Assembly (NCBI GenBank): GCA_041652815.1
Contig: JBAZGN010000005.1
Location: forward strand, 99,651-163,650
Length of the DNA: 64,000 nucleotides
Direction of reading: 5' to 3'
DNA from: Candidatus Omnitrophota bacterium
GTDB lineage: Bacteria; Omnitrophota; Gorgyraeia; Duberdicusellales; 4484-171
Shown: positions 3,087 through 62,204 of the stretch, piece after piece
How the letters are laid out: each line of letters starts with the position of its first letter
How positions within the stretch are numbered: the stretch's first letter is position 1
Translations under genes and position numbers: made by a program
Notes under the pieces: model-generated
Databases searched by the model: none
What the model saw: only the letters and a program-made list of their open reading frames with translations
What the model was told of the DNA's origin: nothing

Positions 3087-3175
3087 TCTTTAGTTTCGCA
3101 AATGTTAAAGCAAATATTTATATTGACCTGGCAGCCGTTATGTTATGGTAATTATAGACAGTAGGTTTAATTTCC

Positions 3176-3855: not shown

Positions 3856-3897
3856 GGGCTACGGGGTTAAGTCTCCGCCTACGGCGGAGAATTAAGG
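3856..3897. repeat. Family H module (GGGGTTAA-N3-TCCGCCTACGGCGGA-G-AATTAAGGAG) that carries the RBS of the downstream gene.
   Basis: Near-identical module at 47786-47830, also directly before a start codon. Confidence 0.5.
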
Positions 3898-3904
3898 AGT
3901 ATAA

Positions 3905-6900
3905 ATGGACAAGGACTATATGCTTCGCGATGATGGAAGTTTTATTATAAAGAATTATAACAGCAAACATCCATTTTCAAATTTTCTTCCCGGCGTAGCC
4001 GGTGCCTGGGGAGTACCGATGTGGGTTTTTTACGTAAACCGGGCACAGGGAGTTATAAGTTTCGGAGTCAAAGATAAAGATCACGCTATAACCGAATTTT
4101 TCCCGGCGAATAATGCTTATTGTTTTGCGCCGCTTGTAGGCTTTCGTACATTCCTCAAGATAAACGATAAAATTAATTATGAGCCATTTCGTGTAATTTC
4201 AGATTATGAACGTAACGAGGAGATGGTTATAAAAAGCTCATCTTTCAGCATACGCAAAAATAATCCGGAACTTGGCCTTAATTTGCGTATTAAATATTTT
4301 ACGCTTCCAAATAGCGCTGCGGGGGCACTGGTACGTGTTTTATCCGTTAAAAATATTTCCGACAAGGAAATAAAGCTTGAGGTTTTAGACGGGTTACCCA
4401 AAATAATACCCTTTGGATTAAACAACGTGTTGCTCAAAGATTTAGCAAGGACTATGGAAGCATGGATGCGCGCTGAAGTTCATAATAACCTGGCATTCTT
4501 CCGTATGATTGTTGACCCCAAAGATTCAAGCCAGACAAAATATATTGATGGCGCTAATTTCGAATACGCTTTTTATGAAGAAAACGGTAAAAAGGTATCA
4601 CCTTATATAATAGTAGACCCTACTGCAATTTTTGCGCAGGATACTTCCTATTCTGTTCCAGTTAATTTTTATGCAAGCAGTTTCAAAACTCCACTTACAC
4701 AAATTATGGCAGGGAAAACCCCGTGCGCTTTTAACCATTTTACATGGAGTATTCTACCGGGAGAGGTTAAAATATTTTACAGTATGTTTGGTTCTTCTTT
4801 TAAATCGCAGCTTATCAAAGATTTTGTTTCGGGAATAGATGCTAACTTTTTAAAAGAAAAAGAAAAAGAAAATAAAAGTATTATTGAAAATATTAAAGAT
4901 AATTGTTTTTCTGTATGTTCTTCAGACAGGCTGAAAGAGTATGTGAAATGTACTTATCTGGATAATGTTTTGCGCGGCGGTTACCCTTATAAATTTACGG
5001 ATAAAAACAGTTACTATATTTTTTCCCGCAAGCATGGTGACCTGGAAAGAGATTATAATAAGTTTAAGTTACTACCTTCCTATTTTAGTGAGGGCGAGGC
5101 AAATTATCGTGATATAAACCAGAACCGCAGGGTAGATTTATTCTTCAATCCGTCCCTTGGAAAATCAAATATAGTGTATTTCCTAAACCTCATAAAGATT
5201 GACGGATATAATCCGCTGGTAGTAAAAGGCGAAAGGCTGTTTTTTAACCAGGCAGCAGCGCGTAATCTATTAAAACAATTCGGTATAGCTGATAAAAAAA
5301 TAATTTCTCTGATGGTTTCAGGCTTTCATCTTGGTGATTTCTTTAAAATCCTTAAAGAAGAAGGTATTGTTGTCAAGGCGCGAGAAAAATTAGCCGCGGA
5401 ATTAGTTACGAAAGCGCAAAGAGAGCCTCAGGCAACTCATGGCGAAGGGTACTGGATAGATCATTGGCGCTATAACCTTGATTTAATCGAAAACTTCCTT
5501 TATTTTTATCCCGATAAATTAGATGACCTGTTTTTAACCAAGGAATATTATTTTTGGGATGATGAGTGGCGCGTTAAGGAACGCAGCCATCGTTTCCATT
5601 TAAAAGATGGTAAGGTTTACCAGTGGCACTCTGTTGAAGAAGTGGGAGAGAAAAAAGATGTTATAGCTTCGCGCGCAAAATTCGCTAATTTTCTGCGTGA
5701 TAAAAAAGGAAATATTTATACTACAAGCCTTATAGAAAAACTTTTAACTCTTATTCTCAATAAAGCTGCGACTTTAGATCCTGATGGTGTAGGCGTTGAA
5801 ATGGAGGCGGATAAACCAGGCTGGTGCGATTCTCTAAATGGCCTTCCTGCTCTTTTTGGCTCTTCAATATGCGAAACTTTTGAATTAAAGCGCGCCTGCC
5901 TTTTGCTGAGTGAAGCAGCATCAGCTTTAAACAAAAAAGGTACAGCTAATTTTAATTTGGCAGAGGAAGTGTATGAATTTTTAGAAGGGCTTGAAGGGCT
6001 GACTAAGAAATACTCTAACCTGCCGGCAAAACAGCGTGATATGTTCTGGTGGGAAAAATCCAATTCCCTGAAGGAAAGTTTCCGGAAAACAACTTTTGCG
6101 CAGATTAAAGGCAAACAGATAAGCATTCCCGGCCTGCGGCTAGAAAAATTCTTAAATTCGCTGGTTAATAAATTGGATAACGGTATCGAAAAAGCTCTGG
6201 ACAGGGATACAGGAATTTATTCTACGTATTTTAAGTATAGCGTAGAAAAATTTCATGCCAAAGGAAAAATAATTAAGCCGCTTAAGTTTAAAAAAGAGCC
6301 TCTCGCGCATTTCTTGGAAGGTTCGGTTCATGCTCTACGCACGCAAAAAGAAAGTTCTATTTATAGTGCGTTAAAGAAAACAGTTATTTTCGATAAAGTA
6401 TTACGGATGTACCGTCTCAACGCGTCTTTAGAAAAAGAACCTCTTGAAATTGGAAGAAGCAGGATTTTTACACCGGGCTGGCTTGAGAATGAATCCATCT
6501 GGCTGCATATGGAATACAAATACCTTTTGGAAGTGCTTAAAAAAGGTTTGTATGAAGAATTCTACGAAGATTTTCATAATTGCGCGGTATGTTTCTTCGA
6601 CGCGCAAAAATACGGAAGAAATATCCTGGAAAACTCTTCTTTTATTGTAAGCAGCGCTAATTGCGATAAAAATTTATGGAACAAAGGTTTTGTCGCGCGC
6701 TTAAGCGGTGCAACTGTTGAGCTCCTGAATATGTGGATTGTAATGTGCCTGGGTAAGTCGCCATTTAATATTAACGGTAATGGCGAACTAACTCTTAAAT
6801 TTTCCCCTATTCTCAAGTCAGAGCTTTTTACCAAGCAGGAGCAGAAAATCGAATTTAGAGGCAAAAGCGAGATTATTGAAAAAGATTGTTTCGCTTTCAA

Positions 6901-7489: not shown

Positions 7490-8893
7490 ATGAGTAAGAG
7501 ACTATTAATTATGGCAGCGATTTTGCTTTTAAGCGTTCCTGCATTTGCTGCTGTAGAAAATATCAAAGTAAGCGGTGATATCAACGAACAGGCAGTAGGC
7601 AGAGATCTTTCTTTGGGCGGCGTGAACAGAGCAGCCGGAGATGGAAGCCCTATGGATTCAGAGAGCTATCTTCTTTCCCAAGTGAGGATAAGATTTGATG
7701 CTGATTTAACAGAAAATGTTTCCGGTGTTGTTCGTTTAATCAACGAAAGAACATGGGGAAACACAGGTACAAGCGATGCGGATACAACGTATGGTGACAA
7801 CGAACACATCGCGTTGGATCTTGCTTACATTGAACTGAAAGAATTTTTGTATCAGCCTCTAAGTATTACAGTAGGCCGCCAGAATCTTCGTTATGGCAGT
7901 GCGTTAATCGTAGGCGATCCTGATACAAACATGACAGTTGAAAGTTCATCTGTCACCAACTATCGTTTTGGCGATTTGTCTTTGAGAAAATCATTCGATT
8001 CAGTAAAAGCTGTTCTTGATTTTTCTCCATGGACAATTGATGCTATTTATGCCAAAATCAATGAACCACACACATACATTAGAGATAATGTAGATCTTTG
8101 GGGTATCAACGCTAATTACCAGTGGGGTTCTTTTGACGGAGTAACTGAAGCTTATTATTTCGGTGCACAAAACAACAGAGATACTTTATCTTATGCCAAA
8201 GTTCTTTCGCAGCCGCCTGAAAACCAGGATATTACCCAGGTAATTGGTGCAAGAACGCAATTTAATCCATTTGAAAAAATGACCCTTGGATTAGAAGGTG
8301 CTTATCAGTTCGGTGATGTGCAGGCTGCGGCAGTTGCTGCAAATCCTGCTAGGCACATAAGCGCATTTGCGATTGAAGCAATGGCTGAATACAGATTTAT
8401 GACCAAGTATAACCCAACACTTGGACTGACCTATGTTTATTTAAGTGGTAATGATGACATAGGCGCAAACGGCAATAGTTATCTAACTGGTTGGGATCCG
8501 ATGTTTGAAGACCAGAGTTTGGGCGAAATTGCCAATGTGCTTTTCCCAAACAGCAACATTCAAGCTGCAAGAGTTAATGGTTCCGTTATGCCGAGGGAAG
8601 ATATTACCCTTGGTGCTTCTTACACTTGGTTGAGGCTAGCAGACAAGCTAACTGAAGCAGATAACTATCCATCATACACTCCACCACTTGGTTACTATTC
8701 CGCAAACACTTATAGCATTAACAACCTAGAAGGCTACCTTGGCAGCGAAGTTGATGCTTTCGCAACTTATGATTATACGGAAGATGTTCAGCTTAAACTT
8801 ACTGGCGCATGGTTTATACCAGGCGATTTCTTTGCAGACAACAATAATGATGTGGCATATTCAGTAAGAGGCGGAGTCAACCTTAACTTCTAA
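7490..8893 (+). CDS. Outer-membrane beta-barrel protein (porin-like).
   Basis: Signal peptide (LLLSVPAFAA), alternating amphipathic beta-strand pattern, C-terminal ...GGVNLNF with terminal Phe; GGAGGG RBS. Confidence 0.6.
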   Translation: MSKRLLIMAAILLLSVPAFAAVENIKVSGDINEQAVGRDLSLGGVNRAAGDGSPMDSESYLLSQVRIRFDADLTENVSGVVRLINERTWGNTGTSDADTTYGDNEHIALDLAYIELKEFLYQPLSITVGRQNLRYGSALIVGDPDTNMTVESSSVTNYRFGDLSLRKSFDSVKAVLDFSPWTIDAIYAKINEPHTYIRDNVDLWGINANYQWGSFDGVTEAYYFGAQNNRDTLSYAKVLSQPPENQDITQVIGARTQFNPFEKMTLGLEGAYQFGDVQAAAVAANPARHISAFAIEAMAEYRFMTKYNPTLGLTYVYLSGNDDIGANGNSYLTGWDPMFEDQSLGEIANVLFPNSNIQAARVNGSVMPREDITLGASYTWLRLADKLTEADNYPSYTPPLGYYSANTYSINNLEGYLGSEVDAFATYDYTEDVQLKLTGAWFIPGDFFADNNNDVAYSVRGGVNLNF

Positions 8894-8915
8894 GTTAATT
8901 ACTTAAGTTAATTAA

Positions 8916-8950
8916 CCCCGTTTCGGGTAACCGAAACGGGGTTTTTTATT
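8916..8950 (+). terminator. Rho-independent terminator.
   Basis: CCCCGTTTCGG-GTAA-CCGAAACGGGG stem then TTTTTTATTT. Confidence 0.75.
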
Positions 8951-10307: not shown

Positions 10308-10580
10308 TTGTCCTACCTATCGCGAGAAAACATCCAACCAGAAATGGGGATGTTTTCTCGCAACATATAGGAAAAGGACAACGGATTCCGGCGAAGCACC
10401 GCCTGAGCCGGAATATCGTTAATAATATTTCGTAAGCGTAAACCATCAAACCGAAGGGGATGGTTTTCCACAACATCTAGGAAAAGGACAACGGATTCCG
10501 GCGAGCCGACCGAGGACGTAATGTCCGAGGGAGTGCCAAGGCCTCCGGATGAGGCTCCGTCCGAGCCAGAATATAACCCT
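10308..10580 (+). repeat. tRNA-Ser-linked structured element, copy 1, with a degenerate internal tandem duplication.
   Basis: 57 nt identical to 14626-14682, including a 15-bp perfect hairpin CGCGAGAAAACATCC..GGATGTTTTCTCGCA. AGGACAACGG pairs back onto the tRNA 3' trailer CCGTTGTCCT. A second conserved ~100 nt domain (GGATTCCGGCGAG...GCCGGAAT) follows. Confidence 0.6.
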
Positions 10581-14625: not shown

Positions 14626-14832
14626 TTGTCCTACCTATCGCGAGAAAACATCCAACCAGAAATGGGGATGTTTTCTCGCAACCTGAGCTCATTAATAAAA
14701 ATATTCAGCGAGGCTTCGCGAAGCGAAGAGGAGGAAAAGGACAACGGATTCCGGCGAGGTAACCGAGGACGTAATGTCCGAGGGAGTGCCAAGGCCTCCG
14801 GACGAGGCTCCGCCCAAGCCGGAATGTAACCC
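14626..14832 (+). repeat. tRNA-Ser-linked structured element, copy 2.
   Basis: Same 57-nt hairpin module and ~100-nt second domain as 10308-10580. Confidence 0.6.
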
Positions 14833-20130: not shown

Positions 20131-20134
20131 TAAG

Positions 20135-20220
20135 CACAGATTATCACAGACGGCAGACGCAGATGACCACAGATAAAATTATCTGCGATTATCTGTTTTC
20201 CAATCTGCGATCATCTGTGT
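20135..20220. repeat. Family C palindromic element, copy 2.
   Basis: CACAGATTATCACAGA ... ATCTGCGATCATCTGTG. Located between rseP and ispG. Confidence 0.7.
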
Positions 20221-20229
20221 AATAAAAAA

Positions 20230-28477: not shown

Positions 28478-28490
28478 AACTAGAAGCGGA

Positions 28491-28572
28491 TATCCGCGGA
28501 TCTAAACGCGGATAAACGCCAGCGAGTTACCGTGCGTAAATCCGCGTAAATATCCGCGGCAATCCGCTTCTA
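28491..28572. repeat. Family B palindromic element (CCGCGGAT units, TAGAAGCGGAT...ATCCGCTTCTA termini), copy 1.
   Basis: Near-perfect inverted termini with internal CGCGGAT repeats. Shared with 35144-35234 and 41299-41390. Confidence 0.75.
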
Positions 28573-28585
28573 CTAACTATATACC

Positions 28586-29293: not shown

Positions 29294-29298
29294 AATGT

Positions 29299-29560
29299 CG
29301 GTTACGTTAAACGGTTACGTAACTCGTTACGGTTGCGTTTGACGTAAAACGTTATGGAAGATAAAAAACCTATACGAAGTTTCCATGATTTAGATGATAC
29401 AATGACAAAATCCAACGAAACAATTACTTATGACAAAATTAGTAAGCAGTGTTACAATCTAGCAATTGCCTAGGATAAATTTAACGAACGTAATCCGGGA
29501 CGCAACCGATAGACGATAGACGAAACGGGTCGCGCAACCGTTTTACGAAAAACGCAACCA
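29299..29560. repeat. Family A' composite element (GGTTACG / GGTTGCG / TTTTACGTAAAACG arms) with a ~125-bp internal segment.
   Basis: Arms are related to 34658-34785 (GGTTGCGTTTTACGTAAAACG ... CGATAGACGAAACG..GCGCAACCG). Confidence 0.6.
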
Positions 29561-29561
29561 T

Positions 29562-34662: not shown

Positions 34663-34785
34663 CGAAGCAAATTGGTTGCGTCAAGCGGTTGCGGTTACGC
34701 GACTCGTCACGGTTGCGTTTTACGTAAAACGTCTAACGATAGACGAAACGAGCAGCGCAACCGATTCACGTAAGACGCAACCATT
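34658..34785. repeat. Family A' element, copy 2.
   Basis: GGTAACGAAG...GGTTGCGTTTTACGTAAAACG...CGATAGACGAAACG...GCGCAACCG, immediately after the rnhB stop. Confidence 0.6.
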
Positions 34786-34800
34786 AATCATCCTGAATAG

Positions 34801-37855: not shown

Positions 37856-39016
37856 ATGGCTGAGTGGATTGGTATAGGAAGGCGCGCAAGAAGATGTTAT
37901 GGTTTTGATGAAATCGCTCTCGCTCCTGGGCGTATTACTATAAATCCGGAAGAAGTCGATACATCATGGGAATTCTGCGGCAGGAAGTTTTCTGTCCCGA
38001 TAATGGCTGCAGCAATGGATGGCGTCGTAGACGTTGATTTTGCTGCTGCGATGTCTAAGCTTGGAGGAATAGCTGCCCTTAATTTAGACGGGGTTCAGAC
38101 CAGATACGATAACCCCAAGGAAGTGCTGAAAGATATTTCAAAGGCAACCCCGGAAGAGGCAACAAACCTTATTCAGAAAATATACACAAGCCCGATAAAA
38201 GAAAAACTTATCGGTAAGCGCGTAGAAGAAATAAAGAAAAAAGGCGGCTATGCTGCTGTAAGCTGTATACCGCAAAATGCCGCTAAGTTTGCAAAGATAG
38301 CGCAGGCTGCCGGTGCGGATTGTTTTATTGTGCAATCTACAGTTACAACCACCCAGCACGTTGCCAAGCGCTATATGCCTCTTGATTTGTATAAATTCTG
38401 CAAAGAAACAAAAATTCCCGTAATCCTCGGTAACTGCGTAACTTATAATGTAACGCTGGAGCTTCTTGAAACAGGATGCGCCGCGGTGCTGGTTGGTGTT
38501 GGTCCGGGTGCAGCTTGCACAACCAGAGGCGTTTTAGGTATTGGTGTTCCTCAGGTAACCGCAACTGTTGATTGCGCAGGCGCAAGAGATTTTTATTACC
38601 AGAAAACAGGTAAATACATACCGATAATAACTGATGGCGGAATGCGCCGCGGCGGAGACGTTTGCAAGGCTTTTGCCTGCGGAGCAGATGCAGTTATGAT
38701 AGGTTCTACTTTCGCCAGGGCCAAAGAAGCTCCAGGCAGAGGTTTTCATTGGGGCATGGCGACATCCCACGGTAATTTGCCCCGCGGAACACGTATTTCC
38801 GTTGGAATTTCCGGAAGCCTCGAGCAGATACTTTTTGGCCCGGCGCAGGTTGATGACGGCTCCCAGAATTTAATGGGCGCACTTTCAACTTCGCTGGGCT
38901 CTCTTGGTGCAAAGAATATCAAAGAAATGCATTTTGTAGAAATAATAATAGCTCCTTCCATCCAAACCGAAGGAAAATTATTTCAGGCTTCACAAAGAGT
39001 CGGTATGGGAAAATAA
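37856..39016 (+). CDS. IMP dehydrogenase/GMP reductase-family TIM-barrel protein without a CBS pair (GuaB-like).
   Basis: GFDEIALAPG...NPEEVD N-terminus like IMPDH; IMPDH-type catalytic Cys loop and phosphate-binding C-terminal blocks; adjacent to guaA. Confidence 0.6.
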   Translation: MAEWIGIGRRARRCYGFDEIALAPGRITINPEEVDTSWEFCGRKFSVPIMAAAMDGVVDVDFAAAMSKLGGIAALNLDGVQTRYDNPKEVLKDISKATPEEATNLIQKIYTSPIKEKLIGKRVEEIKKKGGYAAVSCIPQNAAKFAKIAQAAGADCFIVQSTVTTTQHVAKRYMPLDLYKFCKETKIPVILGNCVTYNVTLELLETGCAAVLVGVGPGAACTTRGVLGIGVPQVTATVDCAGARDFYYQKTGKYIPIITDGGMRRGGDVCKAFACGADAVMIGSTFARAKEAPGRGFHWGMATSHGNLPRGTRISVGISGSLEQILFGPAQVDDGSQNLMGALSTSLGSLGAKNIKEMHFVEIIIAPSIQTEGKLFQASQRVGMGK

Positions 39017-39093: not shown

Positions 39094-39723
39094 ATGATGA
39101 AAAAAAAGTTATTTTTATTTGTCTCGTTAATACTATTTACCAATGCCTATTTTTCTTACGCCGACGAGATCGAACAAAAATTCAAAACAATTGGTGAAGC
39201 AATTAAAGAAGAATTTTATAAAACAGTTAAGCCGATAGGCAGCCAATATGAAATATCCGATGAAGAGAGAGAAGATAATTATCTTCACCAAATAAAGCTG
39301 TTTAAGGAATGGCAAAAAGAACTAAAAAAATTAGTCGAAACTAAGCCTAATAGTATTTGGGCTGACGATGCACAGTATTTAATGGCTACATTAAACATCA
39401 AAGATAATAATTCGGATATTAAACAAAGATCATCGGAGCTAGAATATTTGATTGAAAAATATCCTTCTATCCATATAGAACAATGGACAAAGGATAATAT
39501 TGTTTTGGTGCGAATTCCTAAAAAAATCTCGGATGATGTATGGGTAAGGTGCGAATTAATTTTCGAGTATCAACAAATTGGCGATAATAAAAAAGCTGAA
39601 GCGCTTTACAGGAAATCACGTGATGAATTTCCGGACTACGCAGACCTTTTAGCAAGATTTTATGATTCTAAAGATATATCGAAAGCGGAAGTAGAAAAGC
39701 TTAGAAGAAAATATTTCGAATAA
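39094..39723 (+). CDS. Secreted hypothetical protein.
   Basis: Signal peptide LFLFVSLILFTNAYFSYA; no recognisable domain. Confidence 0.4.
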   Translation: MMKKKLFLFVSLILFTNAYFSYADEIEQKFKTIGEAIKEEFYKTVKPIGSQYEISDEEREDNYLHQIKLFKEWQKELKKLVETKPNSIWADDAQYLMATLNIKDNNSDIKQRSSELEYLIEKYPSIHIEQWTKDNIVLVRIPKKISDDVWVRCELIFEYQQIGDNKKAEALYRKSRDEFPDYADLLARFYDSKDISKAEVEKLRRKYFE

Positions 39724-41295: not shown

Positions 41296-41298
41296 AGA

Positions 41299-41390
41299 TA
41301 GAAGCGGATACACGCGGATTTATACGCGGATAAACGCCAGCGAGTTCGCTTGCGTGAATCCGCGTCAATATCCGCGGATATCCGCTTCTA
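41299..41390. repeat. Family B palindromic element, copy 3.
   Basis: TAGAAGCGGATACACGCGGAT ... ATCCGCGGATATCCGCTTCTA, between guaA and dnaE. Confidence 0.75.
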
Positions 41391-41407
41391 TTATTAAGCA
41401 TATAAAT

Positions 41408-44400
41408 ATGGCTCACAGTGATTTTATACACCTTCACGTTCACACCCAATACAGCCTTCTTGACGGCGCGTGCCAGCTCAACCGCCTTATAGAAAAAGCC
41501 GTTAAATTCAAACTACCCGGCCTTGCCATAACCGACCACGGAAACCTTTTCGGAGCGGTAAAATTCTACGAAGAATGTATGGACGCAGGCATCAAGCCGA
41601 TAATCGGCTGCGAGGTCTACGTTGCACCGGACTCCCGCTTTAAAAAAGAATACAAAAACGAAGACGCCGGCAATTACCATCTTATACTTCTTGCCAAAGA
41701 CGAGCAGGGTTATAAGAATCTAATTAAGCTTGTAAGCCTTGCGCATTTAGAAGGCTTCTATTATAAGCCAAGGATAGATAAAGAAATATTAAGCCAGCAT
41801 AACAAGGGTTTAATCGGCTTAAGCGCCTGCCTTAAAGGAGAAATTGCATCAGCGATAATAGCCGATGACATTAAAGGCGCGTATAAAAAATGCGATGAAT
41901 ATTTGCAGATTTTAGGCAAAGGCAATTTTTACCTTGAAATTATGGAAAATGGCCTTAAGGAACAGGCAAAAGCAAATAAACATCTTCTAAAAATTTCAAA
42001 AGAACTGGATGTGCCGGTGGTAGCGACAAACGATATTCATTACCTTGAAAAAAATGAATCTTTCGCTCACGAAGTGCTTCTGTGCATACAGACGCAAACC
42101 ACGTTAAATGACCCAAACCGTTTTAAATTTAACAGCGATACTTTTTATTTCCGCAGCCCCGATGAAATGAAAGCTATATTTAAGGAAGCCCCCGAAGCGA
42201 TAAAGAATACCCTTGAGGTAATGCAGAAGTGCAATTTGGTTATGGATTTTTCCAAGATTCATCTTCCGCGTTTTCCGATTCCCGAGAATGAAACCGAAAA
42301 CGGGTATTTGCAAAAGATAGTCACTGAAAATTTGCCTAAACGCTACAGCGAAGTTACTGATGAGGTAAATAAGCGCCTTGAATATGAACTGGGAGTAATC
42401 AATAGCACGGGCTTTTCCAGTTATTTTTTGATTATCTGGGACCTTATAAAATATGCCAAAGAAAACAATATTCCGGTTGGCCCGGGCAGGGGCTCTGCTG
42501 CAGGAAGCATTGTAAGTTTTCTTCTCGGTATAACCGATGTTGACCCGCTTAAATACGACCTTCTTTTTGAAAGGTTTCTTAATCCCGCGCGTATTTCAAT
42601 GCCTGATATCGATATGGATTTCTGTTATGAAAAGCGCTCGCGGGTTCTTGAGTATGTAGGCAAAAAATACGGCGAAGCCAACGTTGCCCAGATTATTACT
42701 TTCGGAACAATGCTTGCCCGCGCAGTGGTTAGAGACGTAGGCCGTGCCATGGGCCACAGCTATGCCGATGTCGATAAAATTGCCAAGATGATTCCGGTTA
42801 TTGTCGGCCACCAGGTAACTTTAAAAGAAGCCCTTTCTCAAAGCCCCGAGCTTTCGCAAGTTTATCAATCGGATGCCGGGATAAAACGCTTAATCGATGT
42901 CGCCATACAACTTGAAGGCCTGTCGCGCCACGCCTCAACTCATGCCGCAGGAGTAGTTATTTCCGATAAGCCTTTAATGGAAAGAATACCTTTAATCAGG
43001 GGAGCGGAAGAAGAAATAGTTACCGGCTTTGATATGGAATCTCTTGAAAAGACCGGATTGCTTAAAATGGATTTCCTGGGCCTTAAAACCCTGACCGTAA
43101 TAGATTCGACCGTAAAAATAATCAAAAGAACCAAGGGCGTAGAGGTGGACATTACGAACTTGCCTCTCGATGATAAAAAAACTTTTTCTCTGCTTAGCCA
43201 GGCAGATACAATCGGCGTGTTCCAGCTTGAAAGTAGGGGCATGCGCGAGATATTAAGAAAGCTTATTCCCACCCGCTTTGAAGATTTAATCGCAGTCTTG
43301 GCATTATACAGGCCCGGGCCCTTGGGTAGCGGAATGGTCGATGATTTTATCGAAAGAAAACAGGGCAAAAAACCCGTAAGCTATGGCCATCCAAAGCTTG
43401 AATCAATACTTAAAGAAACCTATGGGATTATCCTTTATCAGGAACAAACTATGCAGATTGCTTCCAAGCTTGCAGGCTTTAGCTTGTCACAGGCAGATTT
43501 GCTACGAAAAGCCATCGGTAAAAAGATTCCCGAAATAATGGAAGAACAACGCAACTTATTTGTAGAAGGAAGCAAAAAAAATGGCGTATCGCAAAGAATC
43601 GCCACACAGATTTTTGATTTAATAGATTATTTTTCCGGCTACGGCTTCAACAAGTCTCACAGCACTGCTTATGCGCTTATTTCCTATCGCACTGCGTATC
43701 TTAAAGCCAATTACCCGGTTGAGTTTATGGCAGCACTTCTAACAAGTGAACGCACCAATACCGATAAAATCGTCGAATACGTAAATGAAGTTAATCATAT
43801 GGGAATGAAAGTGCTTCCGCCGGACATAAATACCAGCTTTGCGAATTTTACGGTTACTGATGAAAAAAATATCAGGTTTGGGCTCTTGGCGATTAAAAAC
43901 GTAGGCACCACTGCCTTGGATAATATAATTGAAATCAGGAAACAGAAAAAATTCGATGATTTTTTTGAATTCTGCGACCGCGTTGACGGCAGAGTTGTAA
44001 ATAAAAAAGTCCTGGAAAGCCTTATAAAATCCGGCGCAATGGATAGTTTTAAACTTAAGCGCGCGCAAATGACAGCTATGCTCGATAAAATTTTAGCAAA
44101 AACTACAAAAAAAGAAGACCCTTCGCAGTTTCTGTTATTTACCGCGCCAAAGAAACAGCAGGAAATACCTGATGTTGAAGAGTGGCCGCTCTTACAAATC
44201 TTAAGCTTTGAAAAATCTCTGCTTGGCATCTACGTAACCAGCCACCCGTTATATTCCTATGCAAATACTGTAAAGCATTTGCATCGGCAGGAAATTATTT
44301 CTCTCTATGAGCAGGAGTCGCGCGAAGAAGTAGTCATTTGCGGCATAGTCGAAAAAGCGCGCATTATAACTACGAAAAGAAGCGGCGAACGTATGGCAAT

Positions 44401-44815: not shown

Positions 44816-44818
44816 TTA

Positions 44819-44873
44819 AGGTTACGAAAGTTACGAGGGTTACGCAGGTTACGAAGGTTACGGAAGTTACATT
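44819..44873. repeat. Family A array: six tandem 9-mers of GTTACGNNG (GGTTACGAA type).
   Basis: Strict 9-bp periodicity, directly after the dnaE stop. Confidence 0.75.
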
Positions 44874-44948
44874 TAAAAGACCTGATTTATTGTAATCTAT
44901 GTGATTTTCGTAGCTTTCGCGATCTTAACATATAATTTGTATAAACTC

Positions 44949-44977
44949 TTGACAAATCTCCAAATATATTGTATATA
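44949..44977 (+). promoter_or_regulatory. Sigma70-like promoter for the NTase module.
   Basis: TTGACA, 17 nt, TATATA; about 40 nt upstream of the ATG at 45017. Confidence 0.55.
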
Positions 44978-45016
44978 TTAATACAGAGGGTTGTATAAAA
45001 ACATACAATAAATTGT

Positions 45017-45586
45017 ATGGAATTACGCATAAATAAACAAAAATTGCTTGAAAATATTGGCCTTTGGGATGGTTACTTTAAGCGCAAGGTAAGCCTTATT
45101 GCTTGTGGCGGCACAGCCCTTACGCTTTTAGGGGTTAAGGATTCAACCAAGGACATTGATTTAATCGTTCCTAAAGAAGGTGAGTATGATTATTTGATAA
45201 AGGCTTTAAAGCAATTAGGTTATAAACCGGTAACCGGTGTAGGCTGGGCGAGAGATAGGGGTTTTATCTTTGATTTATTTAAAGGCAATAAAATTCATAC
45301 AACGCAGTTATTGGAATCGCCCCTTGATAATGGAAACAATATGTTGGTTAAAGAGTTTAACCATATCTATTTAGGCGTGCTTAACTATTATGATATCATT
45401 ATCAGCAAATTATTCCGTTCAACTTCCGTGGATATAGAGGATTGCTTGTTATTGGTAGAAAATAAGCGTAAAGATATAGATTTGGAAAAGTTAATTTCGC
45501 GTTTTAAGGAAACTGCAAGCTTCGATGTTTCCGAGGAAAAGGTAAATAAGAATTTAGAATATTTTCTTAAACTTATTGAAAAATAA
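45017..45586 (+). CDS. Pol-beta-superfamily nucleotidyltransferase, AbiEii/DUF1814-like (short).
   Basis: IACGGTALTLLGVKDSTKDIDLIV matches the hG[GS]..x(9-13)..DhD NTase core and the KGGTAL...S.DLDF signature of AbiEii-type toxins; a later acidic residue (DIIISK) is present. Confidence 0.55.
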   Translation: MELRINKQKLLENIGLWDGYFKRKVSLIACGGTALTLLGVKDSTKDIDLIVPKEGEYDYLIKALKQLGYKPVTGVGWARDRGFIFDLFKGNKIHTTQLLESPLDNGNNMLVKEFNHIYLGVLNYYDIIISKLFRSTSVDIEDCLLLVENKRKDIDLEKLISRFKETASFDVSEEKVNKNLEYFLKLIEK

Positions 45587-45588
45587 CT

Positions 45589-46263
45589 ATGGATAAAAAA
45601 GTTTTGCTTCAACAATTACATGCGTTAGGTTTCCCGTTATTAGAGCCGGATTCTTTTCTTAGCGCCGACTTGGTTTTGTGTGAGGTATTTAAAAGCAAAG
45701 ACCCGCGTCTCTGGGAAGGCTTTCCTGTTGTTTTAGCTAATGCTAATCAAAAAGGATTATTTAACTATCAAAGCCTCGCCCGCTCTTTAAAAACGCAATC
45801 GGAAAAATCGCAGCTTAATTCCCTTCTTGTGATGTCATTTGCCCTTTATGAATTTTATAACCTTAAATTCTATTGGGTAAAAGAACTTTTAAAAGCTTTG
45901 CCTGCCGGTTATAAAAATGAATTAGATTTATTTTTAAAAAAACTTAAAAACGATGAAGATTTTAAAGTAAACAATGTTACTATGTCAGCGCAAAGGCTTA
46001 AAGGCGCTTTTAATAATTATTTTAGCCATTTCCAATCAGCATTAGGAGATTTATTAGCGCAAAAACAGGAATTTGGCCTTGAATACGCCCTCTCACAGGT
46101 ATTTTCACCTAAACAAAAAGAATTATTTTTGAAAAAATTAAAAGGCGAAAAACTTACCAAAACCGAAAAAGAATACTTCTCCCGCACAGTTAAAAAGAAG
46201 GTTCAAGCTCTTGCCAATACCGAACTTCATCAATTTTGCAATAAGCTTCTTGACCAGCTATAA
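45589..46263 (+). CDS. Uncharacterised 224-aa partner protein of the NTase (no domain recognised).
   Basis: Starts 2 nt after the NTase stop (operonic); helical, K/L-rich; no match to HEPN Rx4-6H. Confidence 0.4.
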   Translation: MDKKVLLQQLHALGFPLLEPDSFLSADLVLCEVFKSKDPRLWEGFPVVLANANQKGLFNYQSLARSLKTQSEKSQLNSLLVMSFALYEFYNLKFYWVKELLKALPAGYKNELDLFLKKLKNDEDFKVNNVTMSAQRLKGAFNNYFSHFQSALGDLLAQKQEFGLEYALSQVFSPKQKELFLKKLKGEKLTKTEKEYFSRTVKKKVQALANTELHQFCNKLLDQL

Positions 46264-46290
46264 CGTACCTAATTATCTATATCAATTTTA

Positions 46291-46432
46291 GGTTACGAAG
46301 GTTACGAAGGCCAACAGGCCACCCTGTTGGGTAGGTTACGAATGTTACAATAAATCAAGTGATTTAAATGTAACCTTCGTAACTTCCGTAACCTGCCTGC
46401 CGGCAGGCAGGCATCCGTAACCTTCGTAACCT
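46291..46432. repeat. Family A palindromic element (GGTTACGAA arrays in inverted orientation with inner GC hairpins).
   Basis: TAGGTTACGAAGGTTACGAAGG ... TGTAACCTTCGTAACTTCCGTAACC ... CCGTAACCTTCGTAACC. Inner hairpins are CCAACAGG-CCAC-CCTGTTGG and CCTGCCTGCC-GGCAGGCAGG. Confidence 0.75.
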
Positions 46433-46473
46433 AAATTGTAATTCGTGGCAATTCGTCTTTAAAAAGAACCACC

Positions 46474-46502
46474 TTGACACCCCATTCCATAGCGTTAAAA
46501 TA
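46474..46502 (+). promoter_or_regulatory. Putative promoter (CTTGACACCCC, 16 nt, TAAAAT).
   Basis: A -35/-10 match. The same CTTGACACCC -35 context recurs after the family A copy at 49463. Confidence 0.35.
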
Positions 46503-46617
46503 ACCCCAAGTTTCACGGCGTTCGGGGGAAAACTACAATCAGGAGTAAACATCAGAGCGTTGGGAGACCGACGCTTTTTTAATGTTTATAGTTTGGTTGT
46601 AAGAAAAGGAGGTAAAC

Positions 46618-46959
46618 ATGAGATTTATAGTCTTGTTATTGTGTTTTTGTTTATTACCCATTCATGTGTTTTCTGCAGATGAGAAAAATACTATAAAGGT
46701 TCAAGAGTTAAATCGGGAAGAAGCAACTCAGATTTGGACTAAAACCGTATCAGAAGATGTGGCTGTAATAAGTTCAGATTTACGTACAATTACACCGGAA
46801 ACTCCTAAAGAAAAAGTAAATGAAATTTTAGAGGAAGCTTTGAAGAAAGTTCAAAAAATGCGAACAGAGGCAGCCAAACGAGGAGTTATTTTAGAAGGTT
46901 TTTCCATAAATTTAGCATTTCCACCATCGATGACAGTAGATTTTAAGTTTAAAGATTAA
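46618..46959 (+). CDS. Small secreted protein of 113 aa.
   Basis: AGGAGG RBS; signal peptide LLLCFCLLPIHVFSA. Confidence 0.45.
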   Translation: MRFIVLLLCFCLLPIHVFSADEKNTIKVQELNREEATQIWTKTVSEDVAVISSDLRTITPETPKEKVNEILEEALKKVQKMRTEAAKRGVILEGFSINLAFPPSMTVDFKFKD

Positions 46960-47042
46960 TTATACTTATAGCGAGTTCAGGCTCAACCCATTGCTTTGAA
47001 CCAAGGGTTTATCAAAACGTTTGATTTGTTAATGAGGGAAGC

Positions 47043-47687
47043 GTGTGCATGTTTGATTTTTTTAAAAACATTAGACGATATGTCAGAAGCAAAGATGCTT
47101 GTTTGCTTTATATGGTTATTGCTATCGTAATAATCCTTAGTTGTGTTTGTTTTGTAATCGGCAAATTCCTAGGTATTAACAAAGAGTTAGCAACAATTAT
47201 TGTGTTGTTTGCTACTTTAATGGCAATAATCATTTATACCTGGAAAACTTGGCAATATAAAGATCTTGTTTGCGAACAAATCCTATTAGACATAAGGCCT
47301 CTTGTAATTTTTGAATGCTATCACAGAACAATTAGAAATGTGGGTAAGGGGATAGCAAAGGGCATTTGGATTGAAAAAATTCCCATAAATTGCTTTAGAT
47401 TGCTCGGTATAGAAAATTCAGAGGCAAAATTTGTTATTTTTGATAAGGTTGGTTGTTTAGCAGACAAAGATTCATCCCCATACCTTAAGTTTAATCTTTT
47501 CGATGAAAAAGGAACAAAAATTACTGACCCCAATATCAGCGCTCTCATTGCGCGCACGTTGGATGACACCGGTAATTCCTTAGAGAAATTAAAGGTAGTA
47601 ATAGGATATTATGATTTAAAAAATAATGTTTATAGGACTCACATGAAAAACATAAATGGTGTATTTCAAGTTGATCATATCGTATAA
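47043..47687 (+). CDS. Membrane-anchored hypothetical protein.
   Basis: One or two N-terminal TM helices and a soluble C-domain; no known family. Confidence 0.4.
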   Translation: MCMFDFFKNIRRYVRSKDACLLYMVIAIVIILSCVCFVIGKFLGINKELATIIVLFATLMAIIIYTWKTWQYKDLVCEQILLDIRPLVIFECYHRTIRNVGKGIAKGIWIEKIPINCFRLLGIENSEAKFVIFDKVGCLADKDSSPYLKFNLFDEKGTKITDPNISALIARTLDDTGNSLEKLKVVIGYYDLKNNVYRTHMKNINGVFQVDHIV

Positions 47688-47785
47688 TAAATTCCAAGGA
47701 CGCAATACTTAATTATAGAAATACCCCTCGCGCCTGTATATCGTGTAAATTTTCACGCTCACTTCGCTCGCAGAAAATTTACACG

Positions 47786-47830
47786 AAGCGCTTCGGGGTT
47801 AATTTTCCGCCTGCGGCGGAAAATTAAGGA
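47786..47830. repeat. Family H module (GGGGTTAA-TTT-TCCGCCTGCGGCGGA-A-AATTAAGGAGG) that carries the RBS.
   Basis: Near-identical to 3856-3897; preceded by the CGAAGCGCTTCG palindrome also seen at 9551. Confidence 0.5.
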
Positions 47831-47836
47831 GGTATT

Positions 47837-48256
47837 ATGAATAGTTCATTATTTCTCGCAAGATTATTAGGCCCTTTTATTGTGCTAATTAGTATCAGCC
47901 TGCTAATTAATCTGAAGACTTACCGGCAGATTGTAGAAGGGTTTTTAGAGAACACCGCCCTTATCTACGTGACCGGTTTAATTACTTTTGTTGCGGGGCT
48001 GGCGATTGTGATTTTCCATAATTTATGGGTTGTTGATTGGAGAGTGATAATCACGGTTTTTGGTTGGATTACACTTATTAAAGGCGTGTGGCTTACAGTC
48101 TTTCCGGCTAATGCGGTTAAAATCAGCAAGGTATTTGTAAAGAATATTAAATTTGTTGCAATTCCCTGGATTGTGATGTTTGCGTTGGGGCTTTTTTTGG
48201 TTATGCAGGGTTATTTACCGCAACCAAGAATACACGCACCCGCTATGCAAATGTAG
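47837..48256 (+). CDS. 4-TM membrane protein (hypothetical).
   Basis: Four hydrophobic helices; RBS supplied by family H. Confidence 0.45.
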   Translation: MNSSLFLARLLGPFIVLISISLLINLKTYRQIVEGFLENTALIYVTGLITFVAGLAIVIFHNLWVVDWRVIITVFGWITLIKGVWLTVFPANAVKISKVFVKNIKFVAIPWIVMFALGLFLVMQGYLPQPRIHAPAMQM

Positions 48257-48257
48257 A

Positions 48258-48295
48258 AACCAAAGCCCACCTCGTAGGTGGGCTTTGGTTCTAAT
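48258..48295 (+). terminator. Rho-independent terminator.
   Basis: AACCAAAGCCCACC-TCGTAGG-TGGGCTTTGGTT followed by CTAATT. Confidence 0.55.
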
Positions 48296-48327
48296 TCCCA
48301 ACCTACTAACCTATCAACTAAATTTCC

Positions 48328-48357
48328 TTGACATTCATATAGGACATATGGTATATT
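48328..48357 (+). promoter_or_regulatory. Sigma70 promoter with extended -10 for the fic gene.
   Basis: TTGACA, 18 nt, TGgTATATT. Confidence 0.55.
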
Positions 48358-48409
48358 CTAATTGAGCCTATTTATGGGACAAATGTCCTAATGCTAAAAA
48401 GGGGAAAAA

Positions 48410-49315
48410 ATGAAGGTTTTTAGGCTAAGCGATAAAGAGAAACTGCAGAAAATACTTAAAGCTACCGGGGTTTCGCGTTCCGAGCTTGCCCGTCAGCTTG
48501 AGGTAAATTATAAGGCTATTTACCGCTGGCTGGATTGTGGAATTAACCCGCATCCGCGTCAATCCAAAGATATAGACCAGTTATTTAAAAAATACGTTGA
48601 TTTACGCGAAGTGGTCTTGTCTTTACGTAAAAGCGCGAAAGAACCCATAAAGCTTCTTAGGGAGAATAACAAATTACGCGAGAAATTTTTCCTTGAGATG
48701 ACTTATAACTCTAACGCCATAGAGGGCAGCCGGATGACGGTCAAAGAAACCGAGCTTGCCTTTGAGGGTAAAAAGGTTAAAGGCAAAGAGCTATTTGAGG
48801 TGCTGGAAGCGGTAAATCACAAAAATGCGTTAGAGTTTTTGCTGGAGAACATAAAACCTAATTTTAAAATTGATGAACAATACGCCCTTAAACTGCATTC
48901 AATAATAATGTATAATTTTAACAACAAGCTTCCGGGTAAATACCGGACCGGCCACGTAAACCTGACCAATACCGAAAAAGAGCTGCCTTCTGCCCAGGAA
49001 GTTCCTTTAAGGGTGGGTAAGCTGCTAAAAAATATAAATAATTATGGCAAAGATGCCATAGGCAAAATCGCTCTTGACCATTATGAATTCGAAGCAATCC
49101 ACCCATTTTTTGATGGAAACGGCCGCGTTGGCCGGCTGATTACGCTTACTCAAACCTTAAGCAAAGGGTTTGCTCCGGCGCTTCTAAAGGTTGATGACCG
49201 TTATAAATATTATATGGCTTTAGGCAAGGCGGATTTTGGTGATTATAAAAACATTATCCAAATGATTTGTGATAGCATAATAGAGGGTTATAATTTATTC
49301 TTTCAAGCAATTTAG
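48410..49315 (+). CDS. Fic-family protein (AMPylase-type) with an N-terminal HTH.
   Basis: Canonical Fic motif HPFFDGNGRVGR; N-terminal wHTH-like segment (RSELARQLEVNYKAIYRWL). Confidence 0.8.
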   Translation: MKVFRLSDKEKLQKILKATGVSRSELARQLEVNYKAIYRWLDCGINPHPRQSKDIDQLFKKYVDLREVVLSLRKSAKEPIKLLRENNKLREKFFLEMTYNSNAIEGSRMTVKETELAFEGKKVKGKELFEVLEAVNHKNALEFLLENIKPNFKIDEQYALKLHSIIMYNFNNKLPGKYRTGHVNLTNTEKELPSAQEVPLRVGKLLKNINNYGKDAIGKIALDHYEFEAIHPFFDGNGRVGRLITLTQTLSKGFAPALLKVDDRYKYYMALGKADFGDYKNIIQMICDSIIEGYNLFFQAI

Positions 49316-49393
49316 CTTTGTTCCACATACCCAAGACAAAACATAATAATAAGCCTAACTTCCTGCCCTCAAGTAGGTTGCAATAATTCTGTA

Positions 49394-49456
49394 GGTAACC
49401 TTCGTAACTTTCGTAACCTACGTAACCTTCGTAACCAGAGCCAACAGGCTCTTCTA
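49394..49456. repeat. Family A array (GGTAACCTTCGTAAC units, inverted orientation) plus a GC hairpin.
   Basis: Five tandem 9-mers GTAACNTNC, then AGAGCCAACAGGCTCT. Confidence 0.7.
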
Positions 49457-49462
49457 TTACTC

Positions 49463-49492
49463 CCTTGACACCCAAAAAAACAATGATACACT
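49463..49492 (+). promoter_or_regulatory. Putative promoter giving a near-leaderless hup transcript.
   Basis: CTTGACACCC, 17 nt, TACACT; the ATG at 49499 is ~7 nt after the -10. Confidence 0.35.
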
Positions 49493-51077: not shown

Positions 51078-51096
51078 AAAAATATTTTGATATTCA

Positions 51097-51202
51097 GGTT
51101 ACGAAAGTTACGAAGGTTACGCAGGTTACGAATGTTACAATAAATCAAGTGTTTCAAGTGTAACTTTCGTAACATTCGTAACTTCCCGTAACATCCGTAA
51201 CC
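51097..51202. repeat. Family A long palindrome: five GGTTACGAA 9-mers, a ~25-nt centre, then five inverted 9-mers.
   Basis: GGTTACGAAAGTTACGAAGGTTACGCAGGTTACGAATGTTACA ... TGTAACTTTCGTAACATTCGTAACTTCCCGTAACATCCGTAACC. Confidence 0.8.
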
Positions 51203-51216
51203 TAAAAAAGGGACTT

Positions 51217-52599: not shown

Positions 52600-52678
52600 G
52601 CTTTCAGTTGTCAGCCGTCAGCTATCAGCAGGTTTTATAGAAGCTGAAGACTGAAAGCTGAGAGCTGACAGCTTAAAG
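52600..52678. repeat. Family G palindrome (CAGCTATCAGC / GCTGACAGC units).
   Basis: GCTTTCAGTTGTCAGCCGTCAGCTATCAGC...GCTGAAGACTGAAAGCTGAGAGCTGACAGC. A partial relative is at 22515-22560. Confidence 0.6.
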
Positions 52679-52695
52679 CAAAAAAGGAGGGTTCC

Positions 52696-56050: not shown

Positions 56051-56059
56051 TTGATTAAA

Positions 56060-56210
56060 TAACCAAGCTCCAAGATACAATAACCAAACAATGACCAATA
56101 ATCAAATTCCAATAACCAAACGAAAAAGAATAAAACTGTTTGGTCATTGGTTATTGGATATTGGAATTTGTTTGTATCTTGTACCTTGGTTATTGGTTAT
56201 TTTATAAAGA
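56060..56210. repeat. Family F imperfect palindrome (CCAATAACCAAAC / GTTTGGTCATTGGTTATTGG units).
   Basis: ATAACCAAG...CCAATAACCAAAC - centre - GTTTGGTCATTGGTTATTGG...CCTTGGTTATTGGTTAT. Confidence 0.6.
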
Positions 56211-62137: not shown

Positions 62138-62151
62138 TTGAAAACATTAAT

Positions 62152-62204
62152 CACGAATTACCACGAATAAAACCGTTTCCCATTCGTGGTAATTCGTGAA
62201 TTCG
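62152..62204. repeat. Family D palindrome (CACGAAT / ATTCGTG units).
   Basis: TCACGAATTACCACGAAT - centre - ATTCGTGGTAATTCGTGAATTCG. A fragment ATTCGTGGCAATTCGTC is also at 46441-46457. Confidence 0.6.

Follow-up and report, generated by a model that had tools for sequence, protein, structure and literature searches.

Several kinds of variable or repetitive DNA described in bacteria invite comparison with the locus reported here. Flexible islets, or hotspots between core genes, hold differing cargo at the same position in different genomes, have no integrase, and are rich in toxin-antitoxin-like, defence-like and surface or membrane genes. In integron attC arrays, co-oriented variable genes 3' of a fixed promoter are separated by imperfect palindromes of 60-150 nt. 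The REP, BIME and REPIN elements (repetitive extragenic palindromes and the mosaics and doublets of them) of proteobacteria are extragenic imperfect palindromes that occur in either orientation, sometimes clustered, between convergent or co-oriented genes, and they have been linked to protection of mRNA 3' ends and to rearrangements. In cyanobacteria, the sequences called short tandemly repeated repetitive (STRR) are intergenic, hairpin-forming tandem repeats, usually of 7-bp units and of several unit families per genome, whose function is unknown and for which a role in transcript stability has been proposed (PMC2670836). Here we analyse a 64-kb window (the whole stretch of DNA under study, 64,000 nt) from an uncultured Candidatus Omnitrophota genome (GC 39%), and in it a 4.6-kb block between dnaE and hup that an original prediction had described as an accessory segment divided by arrays of the nonamer GGTTACGAA, at which cassettes would be inserted or exchanged. 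The block is an accessory, lineage-specific islet at a hypervariable dnaE-hup hotspot of one Omnitrophota subclade. Taken as a whole, the evidence is probably best explained by a hotspot islet of self-contained modules in which the arrays are generic hairpin punctuation and not cassette sites.

The gene order round the islet is guaA, dnaE, the 4.6-kb block, hup, hisS, aspS, a LysM protein gene and phoH, and the plus strand holds 62 of the 63 long open reading frames (ORFs) of the window. Relatives recovered through HisS, all of them Omnitrophota metagenome-assembled genomes, bear out the accessory status by their synteny (relatives and other homologous loci are cited by L numbers). In ten of them (L005, L006, L007, L009, L010, L011, L012, L017, L018 and L019), with HisS 48% to 81% identical to that of the window, the gap from dnaE to hup-hisS-aspS is 32-236 nt, and in the closest relatives the same spacer is filled by 0.85 to 7.5 kb of differing cargo; because dnaE adjoins hup in the former and the latter hold other genes, the block is accessory. 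In L014 (dnaE 91% identical) the dnaE-hup spacer contains eight genes in 7.5 kb, a tetratricopeptide repeat (TPR) protein and a SecY paralogue among them; in L015 (dnaE 93% identical) it contains two genes in 2.7 kb, in L008 more than 2.1 kb of DNA, and in L021 another small exported protein. The L004 island has only the membrane protein mp139 (85%) in common with the window and carries a different exported protein in the place of the Fic gene. The SecY paralogue of L014 (533 aa, L014 7082-8683; PF00344, 2.6e-33) stands among lipoproteins and the TPR protein, and may be an accessory secretion component. In its position, differing cargo, missing integrase and type of cargo, the locus resembles the flexible islets of other bacteria; it differs from them in that the cargo genes all point the same way as the core genes, and in that the islands share a non-coding scaffold consisting of a left promoter-leader, a right small hairpin and a junction motif.

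No integrase, transposase or nearby tRNA was found in the block or in the islands of the relatives, the window being covered by its called genes from 38 to 55 kb. A tRNA- or tmRNA-linked island was looked for, with none nearby; the nearest tRNA to the island is at 14.5 kb, and a PHROGs search of the block gave Fic and HTH (helix-turn-helix) matches only, for which reasons a classical genomic island or a prophage remnant was rejected. Base composition is weakly supportive. Only the left 3 kb of the block is lower in GC, and modestly so: the nucleotidyltransferase (NTase) pair and the small proteins sp113 and mp214 have a GC content of 32-34% (z -1.2 to -1.9), mp139 and Fic match the flanks, and the tetranucleotide distance of the block reaches a z of at most 2.2, a value that is not unique in the window. 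The claim that this is the only stretch without housekeeping genes was overstated, since a second lineage-specific insertion lies at 39094-39723, where a 209-aa ORF of 31.6% GC and no Pfam family separates the gene at 37856-39016 from guaA; those two genes are adjacent in L006, L009, L015 and L018.

The breakpoints of homology with the closest relatives divide the block into units. Window positions 46440-46579, which comprise a hairpin-arm remnant, a promoter, a leader of ~85 nt and a terminator, are homologous to the sequence directly 3' of the dnaE hairpin in L014 and L015, so that 44816-46439, with two family-A hairpins (the elements built of the nonamer) and the NTase module, represents a later insertion. 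Homology with L004 ends 8 nt past the mp139 stop codon (48264) and returns at 49349, at a conserved small hairpin CCTAACTTCCTGCC..AGGTTG, and the terminator and Fic module between these points (48265-49348) thus form a replaceable unit. We propose that the islet would have been built by at least three separate events, leaving three units: an NTase module of ~1.3 kb (44949-46263), inserted between dnaE and an older promoter-leader-terminator unit; that older unit, which would drive sp113, mp214 and mp139; and the HTH-Fic gene together with the promoter and operator belonging to it (48299-49315), where L004 has a different gene. New DNA would enter by illegitimate recombination in the spacer, and cargo turnover would then spread via homologous recombination in the conserved flanks (dnaE, hup-hisS).

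The modular architecture suggested at the outset stands in the sense that the NTase pair and Fic are self-contained promoter-operator-gene units found at other loci in other genomes. As for the three sigma-70-like promoters, those at 46474 and 48328 are the two best matches (11/12) in a scan of 12 kb, and that at 44949 fails the scanner's -10 rule, yet across four homologous loci its TTGACA and the operators downstream do not vary. The promoter-leader-terminator unit occurs at window 46474-46585, L015 7150-7252, L014 2320-2445 and L024 7030-7075, with cargo behind it that differs by genome. The terminator stem of the unit has a compensatory change, and Rfam gave no match for it; it may be an attenuator or a small RNA.

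The nonamer arrays were correctly placed by the original prediction (44819, 46291, 49394 and 51097) and are far above chance: GGTTACGAA has 11 copies against 0.40 expected, and the relaxed two-unit pattern GTTACGNNNGTTAC 22 copies against 0 in shuffles. They are not simple direct arrays, however. In each of the four (44820-44870, 46291-46431, 49395-49436 and 51097-51201) units lie on both strands in inverted arrays, so that each locus is a long imperfect palindrome of 100-150 nt, and three of them fold into strong hairpins as RNA (Table 1); the copy at 49355-49460 retains a loop remnant and the right arm only (z -3.0). The copies also share a specific loop, TGTTACAATAAATCAAGTGATTTAAATGTAAC, which makes them whole homologous elements of 100-150 nt and not mere nonamer runs. 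A single hairpin split by the island, with its left arm on the dnaE side and its right arm on the hup side, was considered and rejected, since the element on the dnaE side carries a flipped loop of its own and its right arm is decayed.

Hairpins of this type are a general feature of the genome. When all spacers of at least 45 nt in the window were folded, long hairpins with arms of tandem 7-10-nt units appeared in 19 of the 40, mostly between housekeeping genes (examples at 2375-2495, 20133-20222, 28480-28573, 41297-41392, 52600-52680, 56057-56205 and 62150-62200), with z-scores of -7 to -12. At least ten tandem-unit families occur in the 64 kb. Insert-free relatives also carry a dnaE-hup hairpin, from other families, and orthologous spacers exchange one family for another: between hisS and aspS, where close relatives show six different families or none, there is family A in the window and L005, CGCAGAT in L004, CACGT in L013 and L014, CCAA in L015, GGTTGCG in L007 and no hairpin in L006. 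In the guaA-dnaE spacer the window and L012 have family B, L006 has CACGT, and L015 shows an almost clean deletion. Family A itself is found at non-orthologous sites in L007, L024 and L026. Distant relatives have overlapping genes and no hairpins.

We suggest that these hairpins most likely act as transcription-unit punctuation, as terminators, insulators or 3'-end stabilisers. They are sited past a stop codon and ahead of the next promoter, where canonical terminators also lie in the island (46554-46585 and 48258-48290), and it is this which suggests such a role. Hairpins working as plus-strand RNA should fold more stably on that strand, but a test of fold stability showed no strand bias: among 35 hairpins 17 favoured the plus strand and 18 the minus strand, with a mean difference of 0.0 and a sole exception at 44816-44936. 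The hairpins thus behave like palindromes at the level of DNA, inserted in one orientation or the other, unless they are too young for selection on the RNA to be visible; they would propagate or be replaced at the DNA level. The exceptional hairpin folds at -45.6 kcal/mol as plus-strand RNA against -20.3 kcal/mol for the minus strand, the only strongly strand-asymmetric case of the 35, which could result from RNA-level selection or from a deamination-like mutation pattern. In this hairpin 12 of 45 pairs are G.U, all of them owed to right-arm changes of the type C>T or A>G.

The closest described analogue is the cyanobacterial STRR. The window hairpins have the same traits (tandem short units, intergenic position, hairpin potential and several families), some of them with 7-nt units (52600-52680, 56051-56208), and are of the same kind, though not of a homologous family. 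They differ from STRR in coming from Omnitrophota, in units of 7 to 10 nt, and in a family-specific conserved loop with which they behave as whole units of 100-150 nt; family-for-family replacement at orthologous sites is documented in the clade of the window. REPs, in contrast, are single palindromes of 20-40 nt in one to three families, whereas the arms here are tandem copies of a 7-10-nt core, in the at least ten families of 64 kb. Compared with miniature inverted-repeat transposable elements, these elements are palindromic end to end, with no flanking duplication evident at 46287/46435 or 51097/51201, and comparison of the empty (L015) and filled (window) guaA-dnaE sites shows no clear target duplication. 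Rfam searches, at gathering scores over the whole window and at an E-value threshold over 44.7-51.3 kb, left the hairpins unmatched and found only three tRNAs elsewhere. No description of such hairpins or repeats in Omnitrophota was found in the searchable literature. Small mobile repeats nest within STRR arrays, and in the present material GC-rich mini-palindromes, CCTGCC(TGCC)GGCAGG(CAGG) and CCAACAGGCCACCCTGTTGG, are nested in the arms of hairpins of different families (window 46392-46411, 46311-46330 and 1341-1357; L022 4606-4625; L021 46-61), as if they were tiny mobile inserts.

Could the hairpins nevertheless mediate cassette exchange, as had been predicted? In that case they would be recombination substrates for promoter-bearing cassettes, either as folded-DNA sites of a trans-acting enzyme or as patches of homology for circular intermediates. 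Two family-A elements bracket the NTase module; in L024 a flipped family-A copy stands directly upstream of the NTase module at another locus; and the four consecutive hairpin sites round the island are all of family A (permutation p=0.019). The L015 breakpoint falls inside a CACGAAT-family hairpin and that of L004 inside the hup-side hairpin, the GGTTGCG-family hairpin at 29294-29561 has an insert of ~190 nt at its apex where the family is intact at 34663-34790, and in L022 a direct repeat of ~38 nt stands on either side of the module. But hairpins fill about half of the spacers, those between housekeeping genes included, and occur in insert-free genomes, and where spacers are mostly hairpin, chance alone would place breakpoints inside them. 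Of the five internal island junctions, three (sp113|mp214, mp214|mp139 and mp139|Fic) are array-free, as are all cargo junctions in the L014 and L015 islands; the hup-side array is present in L004 despite the absence of Fic from that locus; the hairpin downstream of the module is a different one in L024 and absent in L022 and L025; no recombinase is found nearby among the called genes; and the modules have their own promoters, with flanking A copies that are inverted and not direct. We therefore consider this role unlikely: the bracketed module, the local clustering and the two breakpoints in hairpins stand, but the genome-wide occurrence of the arrays and the array-free state of most junctions speak against the prediction. 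Integron membership was rejected on similar grounds, there being no IntI or other integrase gene among the called genes, self-promoted modules, hairpins between core genes as well as cargo genes, hairpin-free junctions between most cargo genes, and a core, GTTACG, that misfits the GTTRRRY core site of attC.

An island-specific 25-nt motif, ATTCCnnnGACGCAATACTTAATTA, offers another candidate for the true cassette junction, with the left promoter-leader as a fixed platform, in an integron-like arrangement with no adjacent integrase. The 64-kb window holds a single copy of the motif, which is in the island (47692-47715); the L014 island has three (3126-3152, 4525-4551 and 5649-5675), that of L015 one (8189-8215), and the flanks none. 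It always lies 2-20 nt past the stop codons of unrelated cargo genes, and three islands that differ in downstream cargo have the promoter-leader conserved at their left end. Yet there are only five or six instances from three related genomes, some of which may be orthologous (orthologous genes follow those at L014 5659 and L015 8199); unlike attC, the motif is no palindrome, and it has no integrase to serve it; the Fic and NTase modules are without it; and it could be a shared regulatory or RNA-processing signal. A viral-contig scan with the junction motif gave 74 chance-level matches, none with the extended motif, and one with a family-A 23-mer gave 0 matches. The motif and the conserved left promoter-leader hint at a shared island scaffold, but that they make up a cassette system of this kind seems to us quite improbable. 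Slightly less so, though still doubtful, would be integrase-free cassette shuffling in which the hairpins, the motif or both are sites of a trans-acting enzyme that swaps hairpin families and captures self-promoted modules downstream of dnaE. As for the block being an ancestral core segment lost repeatedly in relatives, or a mis-assembly at repeats, we give this very little credence. Repeats can cause chimeric assemblies, and the closer relative L005 is without any insert; however, relatives of 46% to 84% identity from several branches all lack the block, close relatives show different cargo at the site and not a deletion, and the same arrangement in at least three independent assemblies (L001-L003) means that the block is not an assembly artefact.

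Punctuation by generic hairpins in an islet of self-contained modules thus remains the explanation that we favour, and several observations weigh against it. The hairpins have no downstream U-tract, and canonical terminators are present in the genome as well (8915-8950, 46554-46585); the absent strand bias argues against long-term selection on the hairpins as RNA. The bracketing of the NTase module by family A, the flipped L024 copy and the run of four family-A sites count here too, and given the bracketed module and the clustering a purely passive role may be too simple. That module homology stops at the -35 box may be the product of selection and not mark where a mobile unit really ends, the NTase pair is read as a toxin-antitoxin from its architecture only, for a partner that has no HEPN, Pfam, PADLOC or fold match, and the conservation of Fic is higher than expected for a sporadic defence gene.

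The two-gene nucleotidyltransferase operon of the prediction is present. Its first gene encodes a DUF6036 protein, which scores 36.6 bits against a gathering cut-off of 23.6 (PF19502) and has an intact G[GS]-x(n)-DxD motif (GGTALTLLGVKDSTKDID at residue 31), so that it is a member of that family; the partner gene starts 2 nt after it. The partner has 2322 detectable homologues, all of ~222 aa, 57-87% identical and none with a Pfam family, and in the contexts examined it always lies 3' of a 189-aa DUF6036 gene (after dcd in L022, after a major facilitator superfamily transporter gene in L024, in a region rich in insertion sequences in L025, and in L023). Homology among the module loci (window, L022, L024 and L025) starts exactly at the -35 box and stops at the partner stop codon, with none upstream of the -35, and two palindromes, TGTATAnATTAATACA and TTGTATAnAnAnATACAA, lie within the conserved promoter region. 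The predicted model of the partner is all-helical (AlphaFold pLDDT 79), with what would be a basic, helix-turn-helix-like C-terminal segment, and structure comparison gave no convincing fold match. Searches of the PDB with the sequences of NTase and partner and with a partner profile returned nothing significant, the partner had no match in plasmid and phage collections, and a literature search on DUF6036 found nothing relevant.

In overall design the pair resembles the NTase toxin-antitoxin systems MNT-HEPN, AbiEi/AbiEii and MenA/MenT: a two-gene operon, an NTase fold with G[GS]...DxD, a palindromic operator, scattered loci and a wide distribution. It differs in that the NTase is of DUF6036 and not MNT or DUF1814, and in that the partner has no HEPN, AbiEi or COG5340 match, nor any family or fold match. 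Membership of MNT-HEPN was rejected as the partner has no HEPN Rx4-6H motif, and membership of AbiE or MenAT as there is no DUF1814 or AbiE match in Pfam or PADLOC and the NTase gene comes first. By its architecture the pair may nonetheless be an autoregulated toxin-antitoxin-like module, which would act as a nucleotidyltransferase toxin-antitoxin or stress module, with the partner repressing the operon through the operators and holding the NTase in check. The L022 module is flanked by a ~38-nt direct repeat, GCATTyTGCCCGyGCGGTAACGkCAAGGrGGGAT, at 5270-5310 and 6680-6720; as the downstream copy is the 5' untranslated region (UTR) of yjbQ, the repeat is either an insertion footprint or a recurrent UTR motif.

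The Fic gene is likewise confirmed, with a Fic domain (PF02661) of 65.8 bits against a cut-off of 24, which places it in the Fic/Fido family, and an HTH at the N-terminus. The catalytic motif HxFx(D/E)GNGRxxR is matched by HPFFDGNGRVGR at residue 231, and the class II inhibitory motif [S/T]xxxE[G/N] is present in the same chain as SNAIEG, which at the sequence level aligns with CdFic and FICD. The best PDB match is Clostridioides difficile Fic (4x2c/4x2e, 5e-20), with FICD also among the best solved relatives. Like CdFic, FICD/HYPE and SoFic, the protein combines the Fic core with an N-terminal inhibitory motif in one chain; unlike them, it bears an additional HTH at the N-terminus, its promoter carries an operator, and it is unusually conserved across Omnitrophota. 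It is not a SoFic orthologue, scoring 40.8 bits against a cut-off of 550 (NCBIfam NF046030), and the PADLOC SoFic model covers only profile positions 47-258 of 361. A class I Fic toxin-antitoxin (FicT/FicA, VbhT/VbhA) was rejected as well, since the 153-nt upstream spacer holds only a terminator, promoter and operator and the inhibitory motif is in cis. We propose that the protein would be an AMP-transferase that inhibits itself and, by way of its HTH, represses the promoter from which it is expressed.

Homologues of Fic with 80-88% identity occur in two other contexts, with homology starting at the promoter, and the inverted repeat of that promoter, TAGGACAT...ATGTCCTA, is unchanged in three (L026, L027 and L028). 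An identical protein is found on ENA, JGI and Logan metagenome contigs, and the protein is 72-93% identical over its full length in more than 100 protein clusters, mostly of Omnitrophota; such conservation suggests a conserved physiological role rather than that of a sporadic toxin. The idea that NTase and Fic are parts of a defence island finds a partial echo in PADLOC, whose candidate PDC-S04 matches Fic at 1e-37, scoring above the SoFic model; neither PADLOC nor NCBIfam matched the NTase, the partner or any of the three small proteins, and the Fic protein is of class II and not a toxin-antitoxin toxin. The three small exported or membrane proteins were rightly called, to judge from their hydrophobic segments. 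Among 5.8 billion clusters, mp214 is matched by itself and by one 59% homologue only, which adjoins a Doc-type Fic gene; the mp139 family has 3190 representatives, and sp113 was assigned no family in a Pfam search.

While the islet itself is routine flexible-genome content at a hotspot, this Omnitrophota clade holds a rich and fast-evolving repertoire of tandem-unit hairpins, and orthologous spacers with different families in 81-95% identical genomes amount to a natural experiment on the origin, movement and function of such elements. For annotation, their probable status as generic punctuation would keep the arrays from being called cassette sites or CRISPR-like. The DUF6036 NTase and its 224-aa partner form a module that is very widespread, highly conserved and without an assigned function; it can reasonably be counted a candidate new toxin-antitoxin or stress system of the nucleotidyltransferase kind.

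Table 1. Features of the islet and its borders, followed by the tandem-unit hairpin families of the window (window positions; families are listed by the spacers that hold them).
Feature	Position	Strand	Remarks
Family-A hairpin immediately 3' of the dnaE stop, in flipped orientation to the other copies	44816..44936	.	left arm of 5-6 intact GGTTACGNN units, right arm degenerate; -45.6 kcal/mol, z -8.1; loop aligns only as reverse complement
Promoter and operator region, NTase module	44949..45016	+	-35 TTGACA 44949-44954; palindromes TGTATATATTAATACA 44970-44985 and TTGTATAAAAACATACAA 44991-45008; invariant from the -35 in window, L022, L024, L025
DUF6036 nucleotidyltransferase, 189 aa	45017..45586	+	PF19502 5e-09, 36.6 bits; intact GG...DID motif
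All-helical NTase partner, 224 aa	45589..46263	+	no Pfam family, no known fold; 2322 homologues; always paired with DUF6036
Complete family-A hairpin	46287..46435	.	two nested GC-rich mini-palindromes (46311-46330, 46392-46411); -82.5 kcal/mol, z -12.0
Right-arm remnant of a CACGAAT-family hairpin	46440..46462	.	in L014 and L015 the CACGAAT hairpin comes directly after dnaE
Promoter (TTGACA-16-TAAAAT), ~85-nt leader and intrinsic terminator, 5' of sp113	46474..46585	+	also at the left end of the hotspot in L014, L015
sp113, small protein with N-terminal signal-like segment	46618..46959	+	one N-terminal hydrophobic segment
mp214, membrane-anchored near-orphan	47043..47687	+	two hydrophobic segments; one 59% homologue
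Junction motif ATTCCAAGGACGCAATACTTAATTA, directly 3' of the mp214 stop	47692..47715	+	found again only in the L014 and L015 islands, behind unrelated cargo genes
mp139, four-segment membrane protein of a large uncharacterised family	47837..48256	+	85% identity to the L004 copy
GC-rich terminator-like hairpin after mp139	48258..48290	+	L004 homology stops at 48264
Fic promoter TTGACA-18-TATATT, upstream TG	48328..48390	+	overlapped by inverted repeat TAGGACAT (48340-48347) / ATGTCCTA (48383-48390); invariant in L026, L027, L028
HTH-Fic protein, class II	48410..49315	+	SNAIEG residues 101-106; HPFFDGNGRVGR at residue 231
Right border of the variable region	49352..49460	.	conserved small hairpin CCTAACTTCCTGCC..AGGTTG, then family-A loop remnant and 4-5 right-arm units (49381-49436), then mini-hairpin AGAGCCAACAGGCTCT; common to L004, L014, L015
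hup promoter	49465..49492	+	strongly conserved in all close relatives; conserved core resumes here
Family-A hairpin between hisS and aspS, outside the island	51094..51204	.	orthologous to the L005 copy; -43.1 kcal/mol, z -8.0
Family A, GGTTACGAA	spacers 1275 (partial), 44816, 46264, 49316, 51078
Family B, CGCGGAT	spacers 28478, 35167, 41296
Family C[A/G]CAGAT	spacers 2325, 20131, 33653
Family GGTTGCG	spacers 29294, 34663
Family CCTGACC	spacer 9448
Family AAGGTT	spacer 27437
Family TCAGCnn	spacer 52600
Family CCAATAA	spacer 56051
Family GAAATT	spacer 56945
Family CACGAAT	spacer 62138

Some smaller observations concern the window and its relatives more widely. The true start of dnaE is at 41411. 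A hairpin motif of 5'-UTRs, GGGGTTAAnTnTCCGCCTnCGGCGGAnAATTAAGGAGG, recurs with its end in the Shine-Dalgarno sequence of unrelated genes, at window 3860-3900 and 47795-47833 and at L015 813-872 and 12888-12945. Both tRNA-Ser genes of the window are followed by a hairpin-forming sequence of ~65 nt, TGTCCTACCTATCGCGAGAAAACATCC...GGATGTTTTCTCGCAAC, at 10309-10375 and 14627-14690.

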